DNA of 64,000 nt, taken from contig CAZRDO010000001.1 of assembly GCA_964599225.1 (NCBI GenBank), positions 15,153 to 79,152 on the forward strand, in the 5' to 3' direction. The translations under genes and the position numbers were made by a program. The notes beneath the pieces are model-generated. The model saw only the letters and a program-made list of their open reading frames with translations, did not search any database and was not told the DNA's origin. This DNA is from an uncultured Candidatus Saccharibacteria bacterium (GTDB lineage: Bacteria; Patescibacteriota; Minisyncoccia; Phycocordibacterales; UBA9973). Below are positions 1,315 through 50,623 of the stretch, piece after piece; position 1 is the first letter of the stretch, and every line of letters starts with the position of its first letter.

Positions 1315-3016
1315 ATCATTTCATGTTCGTATAGTCATCCTCTCAATAGTAGTTTGTGTTTCTGCCGCGCTACTCGTTGGCAAGCTTTTCTATGTTCAAG
1401 TGGTCCATGCAGGGAACTATAAAGACCGAGCAGACCACCAATATGTGCAAGCGCCTGGAAGTGCCACTGCTCGAGGGACAATTTACTTGACTGAGAAGGA
1501 TGGTCTTCTGATTGGTGGAGCAGTGGATGAAGCTGGGTATAAGCTTGCTATTAATCCATCCCTCATCAAAGACAGTGAGGTAACCTATCAGGCTCTTAAT
1601 GAGATTGTTCCGATTGAGCACTCAGACTTTACAGCGAAAACAAAAAAAACCACTGACCCCTACGAAGAAATCGCATTTAAATTAAATAAAGTAGAGGCTG
1701 ATAAAATTACGGCATTGAAACTTCCTGGTGTAAGTGTATTTAAATCAAAATGGCGTTTCTATCCAGGCAACACACTTGCCGCTCAAACTCTTGGATTCGT
1801 AGCCTATAAAGATGATGCAATCACTGGACGCTATGGGCTTGAGTACATGTACAATGACGTATTGGCGCAAGAATCGCCAGAGCTGTATGTGAATTTCTTT
1901 GCACAAATCTTCTCCAGTATTTCTAAAAGTCTTTTTAGTACTGGCCAAGCAGATGGTAATCTTGTGACCACTATTGAACCAAACGTACAAGGATACTTTG
2001 ATGACGCCCTCAAAGATCTCGAGGCGAACTGGAATGCTGACCAAGTTGGTGGAATTATTATAGATCCAAAAACTGGAGAAATTATCGCTATGGCAAGCAG
2101 TCCTGGTTTTGATCTCAATAGTTTCCAGAATGTAGAAAATGCTTCAGTCTATTCAAATCCAAATGTAGAGAGCGTGTTTGAATTTGGTTCGGTGATTAAG
2201 CCTCTGGTTATGGCAGCAGCAATTAACGAGAAAGTCGTGACGCCAGAAACTACCTACACTGACCTTGGCTCAGTGACTGTTGATAAAAAAATAATTTATA
2301 ATTTTGATAAAAAAGCTCGTGGACTTACTACGATGCAAGGTGTGCTTAACGAATCGCTCAACACAGGTATGGTCTTTGTGGAAGGTAAGCTTGGTAAGAA
2401 CAACGAGCGCGATTACTTATATAAATATGGTCTTGGCGCAAAAACTGGCATCGATTTACCAAATGAGACGCGTGGGCTGACTGATAACTTAAAGAGTCCA
2501 CGAGAACTTGAGTATGCGACTGCAGCATTCGGTCAAGGCATTGCTCTTACGCCTGTACAAGCTGTGCGTGCGTTCTCGGTGCTTGCTAATGCTGGTGTGA
2601 GAGAAATCCCACATGTGGTGCGAGCAATTAAATATGATTCAGGCAGTGAGAAGGAGCTTGAGTTTAAAGACGGGGAAGAGGTTATCAGTGCTGAGAGTGC
2701 ACGTACAATTACCGATATGCTTGTCCGCGTGGTAGATGAAGGTTATGCACAGTACAAACTCGCACTTCCACATTATTCTGTAGCCGCCAAAACGGGTACT
2801 GCCCAGATTCCAGACCATAAGAATGGGGGATATATTGAGGGACAAAACTTGCATTCGATGTTTGGTTATTTCCCAGCGCAAGATCCGAAATTTCTTGTGT
2901 TAATTTATACTAAAAACCCAAAAGGTGTGAAGTATGCTGTGCAATCAACCTCACCAACATTTTTTGATGTCGTGAAATTTCTTCTCTCGTACTATAACGT
3001 AGCACCAGATCGCTAA
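1301..3016 (+). CDS. ftsI: peptidoglycan D,D-transpeptidase FtsI/PBP2-family class B PBP
   Basis: 571 aa with an N-terminal TM anchor and the transpeptidase motifs SVIKP (SxxK), SLNTG (SxN) and KTGTA (KTG). Confidence 0.88.
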   Translation: MMSAKSFHVRIVILSIVVCVSAALLVGKLFYVQVVHAGNYKDRADHQYVQAPGSATARGTIYLTEKDGLLIGGAVDEAGYKLAINPSLIKDSEVTYQALNEIVPIEHSDFTAKTKKTTDPYEEIAFKLNKVEADKITALKLPGVSVFKSKWRFYPGNTLAAQTLGFVAYKDDAITGRYGLEYMYNDVLAQESPELYVNFFAQIFSSISKSLFSTGQADGNLVTTIEPNVQGYFDDALKDLEANWNADQVGGIIIDPKTGEIIAMASSPGFDLNSFQNVENASVYSNPNVESVFEFGSVIKPLVMAAAINEKVVTPETTYTDLGSVTVDKKIIYNFDKKARGLTTMQGVLNESLNTGMVFVEGKLGKNNERDYLYKYGLGAKTGIDLPNETRGLTDNLKSPRELEYATAAFGQGIALTPVQAVRAFSVLANAGVREIPHVVRAIKYDSGSEKELEFKDGEEVISAESARTITDMLVRVVDEGYAQYKLALPHYSVAAKTGTAQIPDHKNGGYIEGQNLHSMFGYFPAQDPKFLVLIYTKNPKGVKYAVQSTSPTFFDVVKFLLSYYNVAPDR

Positions 3017-3265
3017 CTAAATTTGGAATTAAACCAAGTCACTATCGGAAATAAGGCAACCAGAAAAGACAAGCAATAAAGATCATAATAATCCCTATAA
3101 AGAAGGCGAATATCAATAGATTTTTGTCTATCTGTTTTGGTGTACTAAGCCATACATGATTTCTAATATATCGTTTTTTTTCCGTAGTTTAAGGAAATTT
3201 CGTAAGCTCATAAATATAGTATGAGTTGAAATTTTGCTAATGTAAAGACTGTTAAAATAGACACT

Positions 3266-3277
3266 GAACGAACGTTC
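3266..3277 (+). promoter_or_regulatory. Cheo-type LexA/SOS box (GAAC-N4-GTTC) abutting the lexA start codon
   Basis: Sequence GAACGAACGTTC lies directly before the ATG at 3278 and matches the Gram-positive-type LexA operator core GAAC-N4-GTTC. Possible -35 TTGCTA / -10 TAAAAT just upstream. Confidence 0.55.
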
Positions 3278-3856
3278 ATGTATACTTACCGCATGGAATA
3301 TACTCTTGATCGAATCAGATATTTTTATGAAAAAGAGAATCGCATGCCCTCATATGAGGAAGCGACGAAGCTCTTTGGTTATCAGTCTAAAAACGCTGCT
3401 TATGGCCGTATACGGAAGTTTATCGAAGAAGGCTATCTCGCTAAGAGCGCACGGGGCAAAGTCATTCCTGGGCCTCGATTTCACCAAATTAAGCTTCTCG
3501 GTCTGGTTGAGGCAGGCTTTCCAACCCCAGCTGAAGAGAACCTCCTCGATACGGTGACACTCGATGAGTATTTGGTGAAGAATAAAGAAGCGACGTTCAT
3601 GCTTCAGGTCAAGGGGGATTCGATGTATGACGCAGGTATTCGCGAGGGTGACATGGTGCTTGTCGAGCGTACTCGAGAAGCCAAGAATGGCCAGATTGTG
3701 ATTGCTGAAGTCGATGGGGCATGGACAATGAAATATTTTCGTCGTGAAGGCAAGCATACCTACCTCGAACCTGCTAACAAAAAATATAAACCTATTATTC
3801 CGAAAGAGAGTCTCACCATTACGGCAGTCGTGAAAGCAGTGATTAGGAAATATTAA
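3278..3856 (+). CDS. lexA: LexA repressor (S24 peptidase)
   Basis: N-terminal wHTH followed by the S24 autoprotease module (GDSMYDAGIREGDMVLVER…NGQIVIAEVDGAWTMKYF). Confidence 0.88.
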   Translation: MYTYRMEYTLDRIRYFYEKENRMPSYEEATKLFGYQSKNAAYGRIRKFIEEGYLAKSARGKVIPGPRFHQIKLLGLVEAGFPTPAEENLLDTVTLDEYLVKNKEATFMLQVKGDSMYDAGIREGDMVLVERTREAKNGQIVIAEVDGAWTMKYFRREGKHTYLEPANKKYKPIIPKESLTITAVVKAVIRKY

Positions 3857-3877
3857 CCCGCCAATAATTTTTAAAAT

Positions 3878-4141
3878 ATGCATTATGTCTATGTTTTGAA
3901 AAGTAAAAAGGATGGTGCATTGTATACTGGGTGTACAAAAGATTTAAAGACTAGATTAGACTTACGTAATGCAGGGGAGATTACATCCACAAGACTTCGC
4001 AGGCCATTTATACTCATTTATTACGAAGCTTTGCTCGACAAAAGTGATGCATTCGCGCGAGAGCAGTGGTTAAAGACTGGCTGGGGCAGAAACCACTTAC
4101 ATAAAATTCTTTCTAACTATTTTAAAAATTATGGCGGGTAA
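3878..4141 (+). CDS. GIY-YIG domain small nuclease (UPF0213/YhbQ-like), copy 1
   Basis: 87 aa containing YVYVLKS…LYTGCTKDLKTRL…RRPFILIYYEA (GIY-YIG core). Embedded between lexA and dinB with a 10-nt overlap into dinB. Confidence 0.7.
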   Translation: MHYVYVLKSKKDGALYTGCTKDLKTRLDLRNAGEITSTRLRRPFILIYYEALLDKSDAFAREQWLKTGWGRNHLHKILSNYFKNYGG

Positions 4142-5369
4142 AATGATTCTTCACGTTGATGGCGACGGATTCTTTGCTTACTGCGAAATGGCAGCCTACC
4201 CGGCGCTTCGTGGGAAGCCTGTGGCAGTGGGTGCTGAGCGTGGTATTGTCACTGCTTCAAGCTACCCGGCTAAGCGTATGGGAGTGACGCGAGGGTTACC
4301 TATGTTTAAACTACGTAAAGAATTTCCTAGTGTAACCGTGCTCCCGTCACACTTCGAACTCTACGAAGCCTACTCAGCAAAGCTCTATGGAGTCCTCACG
4401 CGTCACAGTGATAGAGTTGAACGCTACAGTATCGACGAGTGCTTTGCAGTACTTGAAGATAATGGTGAGGATTGGGATATGAGGCTCCGTGCAATCAAGA
4501 CAGAGGTGCAGGAGGATTTAGGAATCACCTTTTCATTTGGCTTAGCAGAGACAAAGTCACTGGCGAAACTCGCCTCGAAATGGCAGAAGCCTGATGGTGC
4601 GACAGTTATCCGTTCTGGAGAAGAAAGGTTATACCTTGAAGGTACACCAATTGGGAAAATTTGGGGTATTGGTAGGCGAACTGCACAAGTGTGTCTCGAG
4701 CGAGGCATTCGTACCGCACTTGATTTGCGGAGTCTCACACTCCAGGATGTCATGCAGTATTTCTCTCTACCTATTGTCGAAATTTGGCATGAACTTGGTG
4801 GGATACCTATGCATGATGTAGGTAATAATGATGAATCTCGTAAATCGCTTCAAGCCACCCGTACGTTTCCTAAAATACGTGGCGATGCATCAGCGGTTTT
4901 TTCAGAACTCTCATACAACACTGAAGTAGTGACAGCGCGGGCAAGAGAAGAAGGGCTTTTTGCACGAGCGGGCAATATATTTTTAAAAACTAATGATTTC
5001 CGCTACTATACACGGGAGTTTGTGCTACCCGAATACAGTGCTGATCCCAAAGAACTCCTTGCGGTAATTGAGCCAATATTCCAGGAGCTTTATAAACCAG
5101 ATGTCTATTATCGAGCTACTGGCATTACACTCAGTGGTTTACGCGAAGAAGATGAGATAGCACGAGATTTATTTGGCGCACGGGAAGCTAAGCTCAAATC
5201 TGATACATCGTTTCTCACGGCGCTTGATAGCGTACATGAGCGCTTTGGTACTCATGCGCTTTTCCTTGGTTCAAGTTTGGGGGCAGTGGCGAGAAGGGAA
5301 GATACTGTCAGTGTGACTGATAGGTATATTCCAGGATTACCGTATCCGTATTTAGGGGAGGTGGTGTAA
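4131..5369 (+). CDS. dinB: DNA polymerase IV (Y-family, DinB)
   Basis: ILHVDGDGFFAYCEM…YSIDECFAVLED catalytic motifs of Y-family polymerases, 412 aa. Confidence 0.88.
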   Translation: MAGKMILHVDGDGFFAYCEMAAYPALRGKPVAVGAERGIVTASSYPAKRMGVTRGLPMFKLRKEFPSVTVLPSHFELYEAYSAKLYGVLTRHSDRVERYSIDECFAVLEDNGEDWDMRLRAIKTEVQEDLGITFSFGLAETKSLAKLASKWQKPDGATVIRSGEERLYLEGTPIGKIWGIGRRTAQVCLERGIRTALDLRSLTLQDVMQYFSLPIVEIWHELGGIPMHDVGNNDESRKSLQATRTFPKIRGDASAVFSELSYNTEVVTARAREEGLFARAGNIFLKTNDFRYYTREFVLPEYSADPKELLAVIEPIFQELYKPDVYYRATGITLSGLREEDEIARDLFGAREAKLKSDTSFLTALDSVHERFGTHALFLGSSLGAVARREDTVSVTDRYIPGLPYPYLGEVV

Positions 5370-5389
5370 ATATAGCTTTTAAACAGAAT

Positions 5390-5764
5390 TTATATATGAC
5401 CTACGTCAAAGGAGATTAATTTTTTAAGATTTTCGCTGGTTACATTATTATGCAAAAGATGTCTAGGAAGTAAGCTATCTTCTATAATATTATCACTCAA
5501 AAAAGGCAGAATATACACATCATTATTTCTCCCTAAAACAACCTTTATTCCTTCATTTTTACACCTTTCGATTATTATATCTATAGGGGTAACATTGCCA
5601 GGATACTCTTTATCATCAGCACTGATTCTCTCGTACACGTCAGATTTAATCCCAGGAAATGGGAATTTCTCTCCACTCTCACTGAGTTCTCTTGCTAACT
5701 CAAGCTCTTCTTTTTTTCTACTCAATTTGCTGTCACCATTTTCAACTTTATTTAGTTCTTCCAT
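5390..5764 (-). CDS. hypothetical protein (acidic, 124 aa)
   Basis: Intact ORF with no recognisable motif. Lies in the accessory stretch between dinB and tRNA-Glu. Confidence 0.4.
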   Translation of the reverse strand: MEELNKVENGDSKLSRKKEELELARELSESGEKFPFPGIKSDVYERISADDKEYPGNVTPIDIIIERCKNEGIKVVLGRNNDVYILPFLSDNIIEDSLLPRHLLHNNVTSENLKKLISFDVGHI

Positions 5765-6187
5765 ATGAAGGAGTATAGCATGGGCAAGGTATGCTTCACA
5801 TTCATATTTAATGTGGTCACAAGTTACTAAGTCTACTCATCATACAAATGATTGTGCGTGGACTAAGTACTTGCGACCCTGTCTGCCGACAGGCAGGCCC
5901 GCCTCGGCGACAAGTATTTTGTCAGCACAAAATCTTGTATACCGCCTGTGGCTTCACAACGCCAGAAAAATCCCAAGCAGTTGGGATTATCTCTAGGCGC
6001 TGTGAGCCACTGTACAGGATGTTCGAACTATACTACACAGTATCGACGATCCTGACTTTGATATACCAGTACATGTACCAAACACCTATCAAAAAGGCAA
6101 AGTTAATATTGCTGCGGTGAATACGATAGGTACATGGTTTATAAATAATAAAAGGCGAGATAGCTCGCCTTAGTAGTTTTGGAATGA

Positions 6188-6382
6188 TTGCCCAAATGGT
6201 TGATGCGTTGGTGGGTGGTTTCCACTGACAATTTCATTTATGTATTGACATATCGAGCCAGACATGCTATTATAATATCAGTACTCTTATATATACTAGT
6301 TATTCGGTTGTGCTTGTTGGGTTTTCCTTGGCTCTTCGAAGGGATAAGGAAAACTCAACAAATTTTTAAACACAACAAATAA
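6188..6382 (+). CDS. hypothetical small membrane protein
   Basis: 64 aa with a hydrophobic core. Weak call. Confidence 0.25.
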   Translation: MPKWLMRWWVVSTDNFIYVLTYRARHAIIISVLLYILVIRLCLLGFPWLFEGIRKTQQIFKHNK

Positions 6383-6388
6383 CTCCAT

Positions 6389-6730
6389 ATGTCAGTACAA
6401 AAAATTAGTTTTAATTGTCACACAATCCCTGAATTAAAGGATTGGAAAAATTCTCTCTTTACACCCATCAATAAACAGGAGAATAAAATTATCCTTGTTG
6501 TTGATGATAAAGAGGCGACAAAAGTGACTATCCAGCGGCTGCTAAATGTAAAGGAAATACCACTGAAGAAAGAGGTAAAGATTGCTTTCCACGGCCTTCT
6601 TGGTGAAGTACAATCCTCAAAAGTTTATGACTCTGAAACAGTTTACTTTGACGGGGAAATAAATTTTACGAGAAAAACCTGTAAATTGAAAATGCAGGTC
6701 AATCTCAAGAAACATTTTTTTGCGGATTGA
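6389..6730 (+). CDS. hypothetical protein (113 aa, basic)
   Basis: Intact ORF immediately after the previous small ORF. No recognisable domain. Confidence 0.4.
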   Translation: MSVQKISFNCHTIPELKDWKNSLFTPINKQENKIILVVDDKEATKVTIQRLLNVKEIPLKKEVKIAFHGLLGEVQSSKVYDSETVYFDGEINFTRKTCKLKMQVNLKKHFFAD

Positions 6731-6859
6731 AATTCACTCAACTTATCTACGGAACTCATTATTGCAATGAGTTCCTTTTCATTTTTATTCGATATGGAAT
6801 AGCTTTGCCACAAACATCAATTTACCCCGCCTATCCTACCTCCTCTCTCCTCGCTAGAC

Positions 6860-7135
6860 TTGGTGTATATGGCAATACCAAATAACTTAAAACAAGTTAG
6901 AAAAGCCTGTGGACTGACACAAGTGACAGTCGCAAAGAAGCTAGGCTTCAAAAACTCGGACAGAATATCTAAGTGGGAGTATGGGCAGATGTATCCTCAC
7001 ATGGTGAATCTGCTGAAGTTGAGTCTTATTTATGAGACGAGGGTGGAAGATTTGTATCCGGAGTTGTTGTGGAAGCTTGGAGAGGAGATGAGGCCGAAGC
7101 CGGTGTATTCGTCTGTTCCTTCCGTATTATCCTAA
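6860..7135 (+). CDS. XRE-family helix-turn-helix transcriptional regulator
   Basis: LKQVRKACGLTQVTVAKKLGFKNSDRISKWEYGQ is a classic Cro/C1-type HTH. Confidence 0.75.
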   Translation: MVYMAIPNNLKQVRKACGLTQVTVAKKLGFKNSDRISKWEYGQMYPHMVNLLKLSLIYETRVEDLYPELLWKLGEEMRPKPVYSSVPSVLS

Positions 7136-7148
7136 AATTTATGAACCC

Positions 7149-8153
7149 TTATTTGGAGGACCGGGGACCAGGCGATGGAGGTATAGGTCTTTCAATCGGA
7201 CCACGATTATTAGGAAATTGACCTGGTCTTGCTGGTAACTGAACTATAGGCTGTTGTTGAACTACTTTATACATTCCCTTACCTTGATAATTTTCAAAAA
7301 TCTTAAAGGCTGGAGTTATAAGAAAAGTTAATGTAACTGTATAATTTATATCTTGTATTATTGATTCAAGTGATGGGTTACATTCACTTCCTTTCCTTAC
7401 CTCAACTAATCTTTTTTTAAGCTCATCAATATCAATTAGGCGTCCATGGGATAGATGTCTATCTCCTGCAAGAAATTTACTAGCTACACTAGCCTTGTTT
7501 TTTGCTCTAGGCTTTCCTTTTAACATATAGTCAGCTAACCATTGCTTAACTAGCGTTTCTGTGAGAGCGAGTGCATTCTTACATTCTGTTAAAAGAGAAG
7601 GTCCGTACTGTTGTAAAATTGGCAACCAAGCTGTAATGAAATCCTTATTTCTTTTGAGTTCTTCTTTGGCAGTTTGAAATTGTTTCAATATTGCATGGGC
7701 AGGACTCAATTGTTTTCCATTGATAATCATCTGTGGATCTGTAGGACCAAGTTCGGCATATTCACCAACAATAATTTCATCTCCTGACATAGCAAGCATA
7801 GTTGCAGCACTTTTAGCTATACTTGGAATAATAAACCTAATATTTTTAAATCTAGATCTTAGAAGCTTAACAATAGACTCAGTTGCTTCAGGTGATCCGC
7901 CAGGACTATGAAGTATTACATCAAGATTATCTCCACTGATATCCCTTAACACCTCAAAAAATCCATCCCTATCTCCAAGATTTATAGAAGTATCACCACC
8001 AGCAAGTTGCGCTTTTTTGGCGTTAAACATTTCAACTGCATACAAAATGCATGGCCTACCAGTCATCTGTGAAAGCTCCGCAAGCTTTCCTCTTCTTACA
8101 AGATCAATGTTACCAGAAGCTACCTGAGCATTTAGTTGTTCCCATGTTGCCAT
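7149..8153 (-). CDS. ClpP/crotonase-fold serine protease, SDH (serine dehydrogenase proteinase)/S49-like, with Pro-rich C-terminal tail
   Basis: ILYAVEMFN…DVILHSPGGSPEATESIV…FIIPSIAKSAATMLAMSGDEIIVGE resembles the SDH_sah / SppA-ClpP clan. The C-terminal 35 aa are P/G/Q-rich low complexity. Confidence 0.5.
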   Translation of the reverse strand: MATWEQLNAQVASGNIDLVRRGKLAELSQMTGRPCILYAVEMFNAKKAQLAGGDTSINLGDRDGFFEVLRDISGDNLDVILHSPGGSPEATESIVKLLRSRFKNIRFIIPSIAKSAATMLAMSGDEIIVGEYAELGPTDPQMIINGKQLSPAHAILKQFQTAKEELKRNKDFITAWLPILQQYGPSLLTECKNALALTETLVKQWLADYMLKGKPRAKNKASVASKFLAGDRHLSHGRLIDIDELKKRLVEVRKGSECNPSLESIIQDINYTVTLTFLITPAFKIFENYQGKGMYKVVQQQPIVQLPARPGQFPNNRGPIERPIPPSPGPRSSK

Positions 8154-8335
8154 TGTGTATTTTTGAAACTTATAACAGTCGCCTCACCTGAAGATGCATT
8201 TACAGCTTCATTATATTTTCTTTCACTTATACCAAAAATTTTGAGACTCCTTTCAATTTCAGGATTGCATCTTAGGAATGTTTTGATTTCTTTTGTCAGA
8301 TTGAGTTCCTTCTTGAAACTAGTTTTTCTGGTCAT
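8132..8335 (-). CDS. small hypothetical protein co-transcribed with the protease (overlaps its start by 22 nt)
   Basis: 67 aa, basic. Its stop overlaps the protease start codon, suggesting translational coupling. Confidence 0.4.
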   Translation of the reverse strand: MTRKTSFKKELNLTKEIKTFLRCNPEIERSLKIFGISERKYNEAVNASSGEATVISFKNTQWQHGNN

Positions 8336-8351
8336 AGTTTAAACATAACAT

Positions 8352-8420
8352 ACCATCATACCTTAGACCATTAGTTAGAAATCGGTCTACATAGGAAAGT
8401 TCGATTCCCACTAGGGTACT
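8352..8420 (+). pseudogene. tRNA 3'-half-like fragment (T-arm/acceptor-like), opposite orientation to tRNA-Glu
   Basis: …GTTCGATTCCCACTAGGGTACT resembles a T-loop (GTTCGATTC) plus an acceptor 3' strand and echoes TTCGATTCCCGGTAGGGTCACC of the adjacent tRNA-Glu. The T-stem cannot pair, so it is not an intact tRNA. A TAGACC…GGTCTA hairpin lies upstream. Confidence 0.25.
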
Positions 8421-8487
8421 AGGTATTTTGGTGAATATGAAGACCTAATAAATCCTTATTTTATAAAGCTTTGGTGATAGTAACAAA

Positions 8488-8561
8488 GGTGACCCTACCG
8501 GGAATCGAACCCGGATTAACGGCTTGAGAAGCCGGCGTCCTAACCGTTAGACGATAGGGCC
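8488..8561 (-). tRNA. tRNA-Glu (anticodon CUC)
   Basis: The reverse complement folds as a canonical cloverleaf: acceptor GGCCCTA/TAGGGTC, D-arm GTCT/GGAC, anticodon loop TTCTCAA (CUC), T-arm CCGGG-TTCGATT-CCCGG and discriminator A. CC but not the full CCA is encoded. Confidence 0.85.
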
Positions 8562-47671: not shown

Positions 47672-49441
47672 ATGACCCAAAGTGAAGCACTCACTATTTT
47701 AAAAACTGGTGCCAATGTCTTTCTGACTGGAGAGCCAGGCTCGGGCAAAACACATACTATTAATGAGTACGTGAAGTATTTACATGCACACGCCATCACA
47801 CCTGCGATTACTGCTTCAACAGGTATTGCTGCCACACATATTGGTGGGATGACGATACACTCATGGAGTGGACTCGGGATTCGAACGGAGCTTGATCGCT
47901 ACGCACTTGATAAAATCGCAACGACTGAATATGTTGCCAAGCGTATTCATCAAACCAAAGTACTCATCATTGATGAAATTTCAATGCTCCACTCAAACAT
48001 GCTCACAATGATTGATCGAGTGATTCGAGAAGTGAAAGGTACTGATGAACCATTTGGAGGGATGCAAGTGATTTTAGTTGGAGATTTTTTTCAACTACCA
48101 CCTATTTCCAAGGAAAACGGCAGTCGAGGTATTTCGAAAACTAGAAAATCAATATTTGATGAGACTGAATTCACGTATGATTTTTCTGAGAATACGAAAC
48201 CAGCTCTTCCAGAACTTGATTCAGATTTTGCGTTTAAATCATCATCTTGGGCAAGCTTAAAGCCGGTTGTCTGTTATCTAACTGAACAACATCGCCAAGA
48301 CGATGATGTGTACCTGAGTGTACTTAGTGCAATTCGTAGCAATAAATTTGATAGCACACATCAATCCTACCTTGAGGAGAGAATTGTGACTGATAGTAAT
48401 CTGCCTGAGGCCATGACACGACTCTTCTCACACAATGCCAACGTTGATGAACTCAATAACACGATGCTAAAGGGGTTAGCAAGTGTGGCCCATACGTACA
48501 CAATGTCAAGTCAGGGCAAGGAAGCTCTTGTCGCATCACTTAAAAAAGGCTGCCTCTCACCAGAAGAGCTAACCTTAAGAGTAGGGGCAAAAGTAATGTG
48601 TACCAAAAATAATCAGAATGCTGGTTTTGTAAACGGCACTCTCGGTGTGATTATTGATTTTGAGAAAGGCTCTCTTAGTCCAATTATTAAAACAACGAGT
48701 GGTAAACAAATTACGATCGAGCCGCAGACATGGAGTATTGAGGAGAACGGTAAGATTCGGGCAAGTATTTCTCAAATCCCACTTCGCCTCGCTTGGGCAA
48801 TCACGGTGCACAAAAGCCAGGGTATGAGTCTCGATGAAGCACTCATGGATCTGCGCGATATATTTGAATATGGACAAGGCTACGTCGCACTTTCACGCGT
48901 ACGAAGACTCTCTGGGCTCCACATCATTGGCTGGAATGAAAAAACATTTAAGGTACACCCTGAAATACTCAAAGTTGATGAAATGCTTCGGACTCAGTCT
49001 GAAAATGCAAGAATTGCATTTTCAGCGCTATCCGATAACGAACTAACAACAATGTACTCTAATTTTATTACTGCATCAGGCGGGAGACTTATGTCGAATA
49101 TTACGACAGATACACTCCATATAAAAAATAAAGAGCTTTCAACTCGTCACATAACTTTGGGATTACTGCGTGAAGGTCACTCTCTCGAAGAAATTATAGA
49201 CACACGAAATCTCAAAGCTGAAACCATACTCTCACATATTGAAGACCTCATTCGAGAGAGAGTGATTGCACCTCATGAAATTACTCGATTACTAAAACCA
49301 GAGGTAACAGATTCTCTTTCCTATATTCACAATATATTTAGAGAACTTGATACTGACAAATTGACCCCAGTTTACGAAGCACTCGACGGTAAATACTCAT
49401 ATACTGAGCTTCGCATTGCTCGGATTCTCCTAAACGCATGA
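47672..49441 (+). CDS. Pif1/RecD-family 5'-3' DNA helicase
   Basis: Walker A GEPGSGKTH, motif II LIIDEISM and the family-specific TVHKSQGMSLD near the C-terminal end of the core, plus a ~150 aa C-terminal extension. Confidence 0.75.
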   Translation: MTQSEALTILKTGANVFLTGEPGSGKTHTINEYVKYLHAHAITPAITASTGIAATHIGGMTIHSWSGLGIRTELDRYALDKIATTEYVAKRIHQTKVLIIDEISMLHSNMLTMIDRVIREVKGTDEPFGGMQVILVGDFFQLPPISKENGSRGISKTRKSIFDETEFTYDFSENTKPALPELDSDFAFKSSSWASLKPVVCYLTEQHRQDDDVYLSVLSAIRSNKFDSTHQSYLEERIVTDSNLPEAMTRLFSHNANVDELNNTMLKGLASVAHTYTMSSQGKEALVASLKKGCLSPEELTLRVGAKVMCTKNNQNAGFVNGTLGVIIDFEKGSLSPIIKTTSGKQITIEPQTWSIEENGKIRASISQIPLRLAWAITVHKSQGMSLDEALMDLRDIFEYGQGYVALSRVRRLSGLHIIGWNEKTFKVHPEILKVDEMLRTQSENARIAFSALSDNELTTMYSNFITASGGRLMSNITTDTLHIKNKELSTRHITLGLLREGHSLEEIIDTRNLKAETILSHIEDLIRERVIAPHEITRLLKPEVTDSLSYIHNIFRELDTDKLTPVYEALDGKYSYTELRIARILLNA

Positions 49442-49471
49442 TATACCCGCACACTTATTTTTTGCTTAAAT

Positions 49472-49735
49472 ATGTTTTACGTATACATACTCAAAAGTGA
49501 AATAGATAATGAACTATATATTGGCTCAACAAATGATCTAAGACGTAGGATTAAAGAGCACAATGAAGGCAAGAGTTTTTCTACACAATATAGAAGACCA
49601 TTTATTTTAATCTATTACGAAGCATATAGGGATGAGAGTGACGCAAGGAAAAAAGAAGCCTCATTAAAACTTCGTGGCAGTTCTCGTTTCCATTTGAAAC
49701 AGAGGATTATTAATTCACTTATAGCTAAAAAATAA
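49472..49735 (+). CDS. GIY-YIG domain small nuclease, copy 2
   Basis: MFYVYILKSE…LYIGSTNDLRRRI…RRPFILIYYEA. Paralog of the 3878..4141 gene with an identical RRPFILIYYEA block. Confidence 0.7.
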   Translation: MFYVYILKSEIDNELYIGSTNDLRRRIKEHNEGKSFSTQYRRPFILIYYEAYRDESDARKKEASLKLRGSSRFHLKQRIINSLIAKK

Positions 49736-50623
49736 GTGTGCGGGTATAATTACAAAATGTATTTGTCCGACTCCAAAATTAAAGAACTTGAGCTCACAGC
49801 AAATTCCATTCGCGAATCGATAATCAAAATGCTACTGGAAGCGGGAAGTGGTCATACTGCTGGACCCCTTGGCATGACTGATATCTTCACCCTCCTTTTC
49901 TTTCATGTACTCAAACATGATGCAAAGAATCCTTCGTGGGATGAGCGCGATCGCGTAGTGCTCTCAAATGGTCATATTTGTCCGGTCTATTATGCGACCA
50001 TGGCCCATGCTGCATATTTCCCTATAGAGGAGCTTCAGACACTGCGTAAATTTGGCTCACGACTCCAAGGTCACCCGCACAGAGAATTTATGCCATGGCT
50101 TGAGACAAGTTCTGGACCACTCGGAAGCGGACTCTCTCAAGCAGTCGGCATGGCACTTGCAATTAGAATTGATGAAGGCAATAGTTCTGACAAATTTGTG
50201 TACTGTCTCACCTCTGATGGCGAACACGATGAGGGTAATACCTGGGAGGGGATTTTATTGGCGGCTAAGGAAAAACTTCGAAATTTAATTGTCATCGTTG
50301 ATCGCAATAATATCCAGATTGACGGCTTTACTGAAGATATTATGCCGCTAGATGACATGGCCAAAAAATATGAGAGCTTTAATTGGCATGTGCAGGAAGT
50401 TGATGGGCATAATTTTGAAGCGCTCAACGATGCCATCTTGAAAGCTAAAGCAGTGTACGAGAAACCTTCAGTCATAATTGCCCGCACAATCCCAGGCAAA
50501 GGCGTGAAAGAATTCGAACGAGATTTTCATTGGCATGGTAAAGCACCGAATAAAGATGAAGCGATGATGGCATTGAAAGAATTGCGGACCTTAGGTGGTA
50601 AAATTAAAAGCGAACATCAATAA
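49736..50623 (+). CDS. tkt: transketolase, N-terminal (TPP-binding) subunit
   Basis: …GSGHTAGPLGMTDIFTLLF…GHPH…LETSSGPLGSG…TSDGEHDEGNTWE. Start probably at 49757. Confidence 0.88.
   Translation: MCGYNYKMYLSDSKIKELELTANSIRESIIKMLLEAGSGHTAGPLGMTDIFTLLFFHVLKHDAKNPSWDERDRVVLSNGHICPVYYATMAHAAYFPIEELQTLRKFGSRLQGHPHREFMPWLETSSGPLGSGLSQAVGMALAIRIDEGNSSDKFVYCLTSDGEHDEGNTWEGILLAAKEKLRNLIVIVDRNNIQIDGFTEDIMPLDDMAKKYESFNWHVQEVDGHNFEALNDAILKAKAVYEKPSVIIARTIPGKGVKEFERDFHWHGKAPNKDEAMMALKELRTLGGKIKSEHQ

Follow-up and report, generated by a model that had tools for sequence, protein, structure and literature searches.

Three co-oriented open reading frames (ORFs) near the start of a 64-kb stretch of DNA from an uncultured Candidatus Saccharibacteria bacterium (contig CAZRDO010000001.1; the whole stretch is called the window below) encode LexA, a small GIY-YIG nuclease and a DinB-like DNA polymerase of the Y family. 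The region is probably a LexA-repressed lexA–dinB SOS operon that has been invaded by a selfish GIY-YIG cassette of 0.3 kb, with the nuclease as a hitch-hiker and not as a new SOS repair function. Terminal repeats and a patchy distribution identify the GIY-YIG cassette as an insertion, and positions 3258 to 5369 are, by sequence comparison, the standard SOS operon of this group of ultra-small Patescibacteria, which is of an already known kind. The operon is ordinary, and the cassette family is the more interesting part.

The three genes named by the initial annotation of this DNA are real, since Pfam and NCBIfam domains are found for lexA, the GIY-YIG gene and the Y-family polymerase. The lexA gene (3293–3856, + strand; the longest ORF starts at 3278) encodes a protein of 187 aa with matches to Peptidase_S24 (PF00717, 4.8e-31) and TIGR00498. 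The GIY-YIG ORF (3878–4141, + strand) encodes 87 aa that consist of the catalytic domain alone, as seen from the PF01541 match (1.4e-11) and the family alignment. The dinB-like gene (4143–5369, + strand; alternative start at 4131) encodes a Y-family DNA polymerase of 408 aa with the IMS, IMS_C and IMS_HHH domains. The region was compared with 80 orthologous lexA loci taken from GTDB species genomes and a few more obtained by exact protein look-up. The compared loci are labelled with L-numbers (L001, L083 etc.), and L001 is the closest relative, with LexA and DinB being 96% and 88% identical to those of the window. The LexA homologues are mostly 186–189 aa long and come under the names Nomurabacteria, Paceibacterota and similar, which places the window in Patescibacteria, in a genome resembling those of Nomurabacteria or Paceibacteria.

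Occurrence of the GIY-YIG gene between lexA and dinB

In 46 of 83 related loci, dinB lies after lexA in the same orientation, usually 2–60 nt away. A minimal SOS core shared by different phyla includes both genes (PMC8565304). The GIY-YIG gene is missing in 43 of these 46 lexA–dinB loci, including L001, where lexA and dinB are separated by a spacer of 114 nt with no homology to the cassette of the window. L172 and L173 also have no GIY-YIG gene, and lexA meets dinB there as TAATG and TAAaaATG. The same trio is found only in L083 (LexA and GIY-YIG being 69% and 74% identical, respectively), where the neighbourhood is different, and L059 carries a small GIY-YIG gene, 50% identical, just upstream of dinB in the lexA operon.

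At the nucleotide level, the cassettes of the window and of L083 are 76% identical, more than lexA (67%) and dinB (60%) of the two loci. Since the cassette is more alike than its flanks and L083 is closer to the cassette-free loci L172 and L173 than to the window, the pattern favours either an independent gain of the cassette or several losses. The only canonical in-frame start of L083 dinB (4254–4300) is the ATG inside the right arm of the cassette (ATGGCGGGTAAATCACTC...), and thus this dinB gene appears to depend on the inserted element for its start codon.

Structure of the cassette at the lexA–dinB junction

The insertion in the window, cassette 1, is 282 bp long (3857–4138, + strand), reads CCCGCC...GGCGGG and has TAA on both flanks. 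It is bounded by inverted repeats of about 23 nt, which were overlooked in the initial annotation. The left arm TTAACCCGCCAATAATTTTTAAA (3853–3875, + strand) overlaps the lexA stop codon TAA (3854–3856). The right arm TTTTAAAAATTATGGCGGGTAAA (4120–4142, + strand), which pairs with the left arm in the RNA fold, holds the last GIY-YIG codons and the stop codon together with ATG 4131 in frame with dinB. TAA is also present on both sides of the related cassettes in L083 and L088, and it is not in L085. The predicted empty site of cassette 1 matches the L173 junction tatTAAaaATG.

The gap between lexA and the GIY-YIG gene is 21 nt, as previously given, and the spacing of minus 10 nt reported for the GIY-YIG gene and dinB is in fact an overlap of 11 nt when counted from ATG 4131 or a gap of +1 nt when counted from ATG 4143. 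Homology of dinB to L001 begins exactly at ATG 4143, 1 nt past the GIY-YIG stop codon, and by this comparison 4143 is the native start of dinB; ATG 4131 is an in-frame alternative start that lies inside the right arm of the cassette.

The GIY-YIG ORF of cassette 1 scores 44.9 bits against a PF01541 cutoff of 22.6 bits, and a domain scan finds no extra domain in the 87-aa protein. Copy 1 keeps Y3, Y5, Y16, G18, R26 and E50 and has Arg at the near-invariant position His30, which is His in at least 90% of relatives and also in the second copy of the window. Because Arg replaces His30, the nuclease of copy 1 may be impaired.

A second cassette and its empty site

The window contains another cassette of this kind, cassette 2 (49442–49748, or 49446–49744 by narrower bounds, + strand), bounded by perfect inverted repeats of 22 nt (49442–49463 and 49727–49748) that consist of TATACCCGCACACTTATTTTTT and its reverse complement. 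Its ORF (49472–49735, + strand) encodes 87 aa, 52% identical to copy 1, and lies between a PIF1-like helicase gene (47672–49441) and the gene for the transketolase N-terminal subunit. The arm pairs of the two cassettes rank first in strength among all long-range inverted repeats of the 64 kb, and no solo or ORF-less copies of either cassette's arms are found in the window beyond the arms themselves.

In L175, whose transketolase is 98% identical, 13 nt separate the helicase gene from the transketolase gene, and no cassette is present. The empty site in L175 is GCGTGATATAATC, and the filled site in the window is GCATGATATA followed by the insert CCCGC...GCGGG (in full, CCCGCACAC...GTGTGCGGG) and TATAATT; the empty-site sequences of the cassettes are AAATATTAAAATG and GTGATATAATC. 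The alignment shows a clean insertion, in which the single TATA of the empty site corresponds to one TATA at each end of the insert in the filled site. Since TATA is duplicated at the site of cassette 2, insertion at the level of DNA is indicated.

The cassette family

Homologues of the GIY-YIG ORF number 387 and belong mostly to Patescibacteria. The survey of flanking repeats covered 90 homologous ORFs, namely the two copies of the window, the copies in the compared loci and those of 80 metagenome loci. Flanking repeats reach a score of 20 or more in 66 of them, whereas an internal control does so in 7 of 90 and shuffled sequences average about 13. The subfamilies differ in their repeats, with at least seven distinct sequences, for example CCCGCCAATAATTTTT, CCCTCCCAACTTTTTAG, CCCCGTTAGAGA and GCCCGTGAAATA; it is the pairing of the arms that is conserved and not their sequence. 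The stop codon of the ORF lies inside the right arm or just before it.

Close homologues occupy at least five types of gene junction. Those with 66–74% identity are found at M50/rpsL, FtsX/ABC, hyp/PrgI and L11../L1, that is, in ribosomal-protein, ABC-transporter and conjugation operons, and FtsX/ABC is occupied twice, in two lineages. All of them are co-oriented with their neighbours, and 0–1 nt lie between their end and the called start of the next gene, except where they extend into an in-frame ATG of the right arm (L083, L088). Across all loci, cassettes are co-oriented with the downstream gene in a ratio of 32:4. No relatives were found when IMG/VR viral contigs were scanned with the GIY-YIG alignment, and hence there is no sign of phage carriage. 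No description of such GIY-YIG cassettes was found in the literature searched, which largely did not cover subscription journals. One metagenome contig, L094, has two small GIY-YIG ORFs within 1.2 kb (1834–2088 and 3001–3252) downstream of a distant Y-family polymerase homologue, with weak or absent flanking repeats.

Nuclease as a passenger or as an SOS enzyme

The initial annotation had described a compact three-gene SOS unit, and it is conceivable that lexA, the GIY-YIG gene and dinB form a selected module in which the nuclease is a true damage-response enzyme that, for example, nicks or processes lesions for DinB. The trio recurs in L083 with the same spacing in a different neighbourhood, where dinB expression depends on the cassette that supplies its sole canonical start, and the small GIY-YIG gene of L059 stands directly upstream of dinB in a lexA operon. 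Larger GIY-YIG enzymes are also SOS members elsewhere. The statement that the family lies outside SOS regulons is inexact, given the GIY-YIG exonuclease that is reported to be LexA-regulated in Bacteroidetes (PMC8565304) and the genes of 480–515 aa for fusions of RNase_T (DnaQ-like) and GIY-YIG domains that lie between lexA and dinB in L048 (2391–3839) and L059 (4768–6315).

A selected module is nevertheless unlikely, and the reading of the three genes as one designed SOS unit is not supported. The GIY-YIG gene is absent from nearly all lexA–dinB loci (43 of 46), among them the closest relative L001 as well as L172 and L173, and the same cassette family is found in unrelated operons; none of the 87 cassette loci that were not picked through lexA adjoins lexA or dinB. 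Cassettes occupy 3 of 47 lexA–dinB junctions, which is no higher than the frequency of 2 cassettes per about 60 genes in the window. The inverted repeats and the polymorphism between empty and filled sites mark an insertion, and Arg at the near-invariant His30 position of the window copy also speaks against a selected repair enzyme. The passenger reading of the nuclease is therefore preferred here.

Mobile DNA or processed RNA

The cassette would move by DNA-level transposition or by homing through its own nuclease, possibly with RNase III processing of its long stem in the manner of rRNA intervening sequences. A tentative proposal is that the small GIY-YIG genes of Patescibacteria (83–93 aa) are the mobility enzymes of undescribed inverted-repeat elements of about 0.3 kb, which would insert precisely at the stop/start junctions of operons with a short target duplication, do no harm because translational coupling is restored by a right arm that carries a stop codon and sometimes a start codon or a Shine-Dalgarno-like GGAGGG, and be expressed solely by read-through from host promoters. 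The nuclease of the element in the window would then be inducible by DNA damage through LexA.

It is possible, though not probable, that the cassette is an intervening-sequence-type element acting mainly as RNA. The two arms would then form a stem of 25–40 bp in the operon transcript, and its cleavage by RNase III would separate the lexA and dinB mRNAs and set the level of DinB, with the GIY-YIG protein as dispensable cargo and not as the mobility enzyme. Minimum-free-energy RNA folds pair the arms in copies 1 and 2 (z = -2.4 and -5.4, respectively), the co-orientation with host genes is strongly biased, and the architecture is like that of the Coxiella and Leptospira intervening sequences (PMC4990558). 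GIY-YIG ORFs also occur in rRNA insertions of candidate phyla radiation (CPR) bacteria that are neither group I nor group II introns (PMC11270868). In addition, an ORF of the 23S_rRNA_IVP family (PF05635) lies between lexA and dinB in L018 (4566–5051), flanked by 38-nt inverted repeats that are 92% complementary. On the other hand, the arm mismatches (22 G.U, 16 C.A and 27 transversions) have no excess of G.U over C.A and thus no RNA-specific bias, an Rfam scan of 3100–5500 at E ≤ 1 gives no match, and the duplicated TATA at the insertion site is not explained by RNA processing. Mobility at the level of DNA is still compatible with an RNA-level role, so this explanation is partly complementary to that of a mobile hitch-hiking cassette, and a nuclease-driven DNA element and an RNA-processed passenger are both compatible with the evidence.

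Several points weigh against a hitch-hiking mobile cassette. L083, a separate lineage by its LexA identity of 69%, has a cassette of the same type between lexA and dinB, and in L059 dinB is immediately preceded by a related small GIY-YIG gene; this recurrence could reflect site-specific homing or a functional link. A single clean filled/empty pair, cassette 2 of the window and L175, provides the target-site duplication, and the ancestral spacer of copy 1 is not reconstructable because the L001 spacer is unrelated. Pfam and NCBIfam find no transposase domain in the cassette ORF, GIY-YIG being the sole domain found, and we know of no GIY-YIG enzyme that catalyses integration. Since the arm mismatches are unbiased, roles at the DNA and RNA levels are indistinguishable. 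A weak promoter-like site inside the GIY-YIG ORF (3986–4014) may act as a LexA-independent dinB promoter, and co-transcription, LexA binding and the leaderless start discussed below are predictions from sequence.

Operator and promoter of lexA

The putative LexA operator GAACGAACGTTC (3266–3277, no strand assigned) is the only exact match in the window to GAAC-N4-GTTC, the Cheo-type LexA box. As the extended palindrome TGAAC-N4-GTTCA, it spans 3265–3278 and lies within the spacer between a -35-like hexamer TAGACA (3258–3263, + strand) and a -10 hexamer TATACT (3281–3286, + strand); in the promoter scan, these hexamers give 10 of 12 matches with a spacer of 17 nt. Orthologues have TTGAC or TTGC at the position of TAGACA, and their general layout is TTGAC/TTGC, (T/A)(G/A)GAAC-N4-GTTC(A/T)(C/A), TAnnnT, 6–10 nt and ATG. 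This promoter–operator layout is shared with 30 of 84 orthologous Patescibacteria loci, where a perfect box is found no more than 80 nt upstream of lexA, at -26 to -31 from the ATG in 25 cases. The background of 0.0066 boxes per 80 bp predicts about 0.56 such loci.

The count of boxes by itself is insignificant, with 0.95 matches expected by chance and at least one match in 61 of 100 shuffles, so that a single exact match in 64 kb would also be obtained if the site were a chance palindrome and lexA were not autoregulated. The significance of the box comes from its position and conservation and not from its count. It sits exactly in the spacer of the lexA promoter, it recurs at the same offset far more often in orthologous loci than the background predicts, and both box and TATACT are 100% conserved in L001 amid unrelated upstream DNA. 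With a weight matrix built from the orthologous boxes, the site scores 19.5 bits, compared with 8.5 bits for the runner-up in the 64 kb and shuffle maxima of at most 14.2 bits. A chance palindrome is therefore very improbable. The earlier claim of a unique operator holds within the window, where the weight-matrix scan finds no credible LexA box besides 3266–3277.

The start of lexA is most likely at 3293, because the lengths of the homologues, their alignment and the break in conservation relative to L001 all place it there. An alignment of 36 LexA sequences has the equivalent start in most homologues. Nucleotide homology to L001 at lexA opens just 5′ of the box (3264 in the window), and the six bases from TATACT to the second ATG differ between the two (taccgc and tctctc). 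The description of the box as flush with the lexA start applies to the longest ORF, from ATG 3278, and fails for the likely start at 3293, for which the box lies inside the promoter. TAnnnT is found 6–10 nt before the ATG in 22 of 22 scored orthologous promoters, and none of these 22 has a Shine-Dalgarno-like sequence. Since the -10 hexamer of the window ends 6 nt before ATG 3293 and there is no Shine-Dalgarno sequence, the promoter geometry implies a leaderless or near-leaderless lexA mRNA.

A second LexA box before the GIY-YIG gene or dinB was considered and rejected; the sole near match, at 3587, lies in the lexA coding sequence and scores 5.2 bits. This one-mismatch box GAAGCGACGTTC (3587–3598) falls on the KEATFML motif and probably owes its presence to the conservation of this peptide. 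Between lexA, the GIY-YIG gene and dinB, no terminator or promoter rises above shuffle expectation: a terminator-like hairpin at 4154–4167 and the promoter-like site at 3986–4014 (9 of 12 matches) are both at chance level. The absence of an intervening operator or terminator was thus correctly noted before.

Operators of other types are seen among the orthologues. GTAC-N4-GTAC palindromes stand at the position of the box (about -30 from the lexA ATG) in L007, L013 and L018, and GAGC-N4-GCTC is found in L071, which suggests that LexA operator specificity has drifted within Patescibacteria. About half of the LexA loci have neither a palindromic box nor an adjacent dinB (L011, L014, L017, L020, L029, L044, L070, L072, L082 and others), and several box-less loci have a single half-site resembling GTTCTA or GTACTA beside the -10 region. 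The box-less loci may use a different operator or have no autoregulation.

Predicted expression of the operon

These features lead to a plausible model in which LexA regulates its own gene through the putative operator. LexA bound at TGAAC-N4-GTTCA in the spacer of a sigma-70-type promoter would occlude RNA polymerase, and DNA damage would cause LexA to cleave itself at Ala74-Gly75 through Ser110 and Lys147. The derepressed, leaderless transcript would begin at or next to ATG 3293 and continue through dinB. Because the lexA promoter holds the sole operator and no terminator in the unit is convincing, the most economical reading is an autoregulated transcript that runs from lexA to dinB, and this reading is well supported by the comparison of loci. 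The single autoregulated SOS transcript of the initial annotation accordingly stands for lexA to dinB, a pair adjacent in 46 of 83 loci, and falls for the GIY-YIG gene as a member of the regulon.

The cassette of 282 bp occupies precisely the interval from the lexA stop to the start of dinB. Since neither a promoter nor a terminator is convincingly identified within it, the cassette is probably co-transcribed and would be damage-inducible only by hitch-hiking. Translation of dinB may be coupled to the cassette, because its start either adjoins the GIY-YIG stop at a distance of 1 nt or is the ATG in the right arm.

LexA and the polymerase

LexA, read from 3293, exceeds the NCBIfam equivalog cutoff of TIGR00498 (124.3 bits versus 110.95 bits) in a full-length match that covers residues 5–186 and thereby the N-terminal DNA-binding domain, and the domain scan gives no match to the Pfam LexA_DNA_bind model. 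The cleavage site Ala74-Gly75 and the dyad residues Ser110 and Lys147 are invariant across the 36 aligned homologues. The polymerase matches PF00817 (5.4e-36), PF11799 (2.1e-16) and PF11798 (1e-5) and remains below all NCBIfam Pol IV equivalog cutoffs, its best score being 193 bits against cutoffs of 256–399 bits. Because these cutoffs are not reached, it is classed on its domains as a DinB-like Y-family polymerase, short of a certified Pol IV equivalog.

Other occupants of the junction and neighbouring DNA

Further inserts between lexA and dinB encode a PemK-like toxin in L041, a Peptidase_S51 protein in L025 and a Bro-N protein in L052. In L057, a homologue of the PIF1-like helicase of the window (47672–49441) lies between lexA and dinB (4568–6522), and helicases of this family may belong to the SOS regulon of some Patescibacteria; the same interval holds a 92-aa protein with a PCHRV motif that, judged by eye, is alkyltransferase-like. 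The lexA–dinB spacers of L004, L068, L076 and L023 are 150–350 nt long and ORF-less and have inverted repeats scoring 22–33, compared with about 14 in shuffles. Such spacers may have arisen from cassettes by decay or may be miniature forms of them. L075 carries a second lexA paralogue, 53% identical, on the opposite strand (4390–4935, - strand) about 2 kb downstream of its lexA–dinB pair.

The DNA 3′ of dinB in the window (5390–8561) is not common to L001 except for a short match and a tRNA. It holds an ORF with an XRE-type helix-turn-helix recognised by eye (6860–7135), a minus-strand ORF of 334 aa (7149–8153) and tRNA-Glu(CTC) (8488–8561, - strand), and it may be an integrated element beside the tRNA.

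Significance

The region calls for caution in SOS biology, where gene order alone would add a passenger GIY-YIG nuclease to the SOS regulon of Patescibacteria. The operon itself is a clean case of a compact and apparently leaderless SOS core in organisms with tiny genomes. With the cassettes, elements of a design like that of rRNA intervening sequences are seen in protein-coding operons of CPR bacteria as well, equipped with a nuclease domain and placed precisely at gene boundaries. If the nuclease drives mobility, the cassette would represent a mobile element of a new, minimal type, here wired to the DNA-damage response.

Comparison with known systems

LexA-autoregulated lexA–dinB operons are known from Geobacter, and the SOS network of Patescibacteria has reportedly been treated by Sanchez-Osuna, Barbe and Erill (2017, Environ Microbiol 19:3465; cited in PMC8565304). 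As in such operons, the window has an operator of the GAAC-N4-GTTC type in the lexA promoter and a Y-family polymerase as the next host gene directly after lexA. It differs from them in the selfish cassette that interrupts the pair and in the leaderless lexA mRNA predicted from the promoter geometry, in which the -10 hexamer ends 6 nt from the ATG and a Shine-Dalgarno sequence is missing.

SOS-regulated GIY-YIG nucleases include E. coli Cho, which is SOS-induced and has the GIY-YIG fold, and fusions with DnaQ-like exonucleases. They share with the window protein a GIY-YIG catalytic fold under LexA control, which in the window is a prediction. These are UvrC-like repair enzymes of 300–500 aa that lack flanking repeats, whereas the window protein is a stand-alone domain of 87 aa in a repeat-bounded insertion. 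A GIY-YIG-domain exonuclease is reported to be LexA-regulated in Bacteroidetes, and the RNase_T and GIY-YIG fusions of L048 and L059 resemble this SOS exonuclease (PMC8565304).

Compared with insertion sequences and transposons, the cassette has clear terminal repeats and a TATA duplicated in one filled/empty pair, and it has no recognised transposase. Free-standing GIY-YIG homing genes of the T4 Seg/I-TevI type are similar in that a nuclease gene is wedged between conserved genes and is patchy among close relatives, and also in that the same junction is filled in two lineages by a cassette that is more similar than its flanks. In contrast to homing genes, the 87-aa catalytic domain has no DNA-binding domain for site specificity and its close homologues occupy many sites, and homing does not give rise to terminal inverted repeats and a target duplication such as those apparent at the cassette.

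The intervening sequences of 23S rRNA in Coxiella, Leptospira and Salmonella, with their S23p/23S_rRNA_IVP ORF, are likewise a few hundred nucleotides long; their complementary ends pair over about 20–40 bp, and the loop holds a small ORF. The Coxiella element has 428 nt, and the elements of Coxiella and Leptospira have a terminal stem of about 28 bp and are excised by RNase III; the sporadic distribution of rRNA intervening sequences suggests horizontal spread, and their mobility is suspected and unproven (PMC4990558). The intervening-sequence ORF encodes a four-helix-bundle protein, whereas the cassette ORF encodes a GIY-YIG domain. Intervening sequences lie in helix 45 of the rRNA, whereas both cassettes of the window lie between protein-coding genes, and the duplicated TATA at one of these sites points to insertion at the level of DNA.

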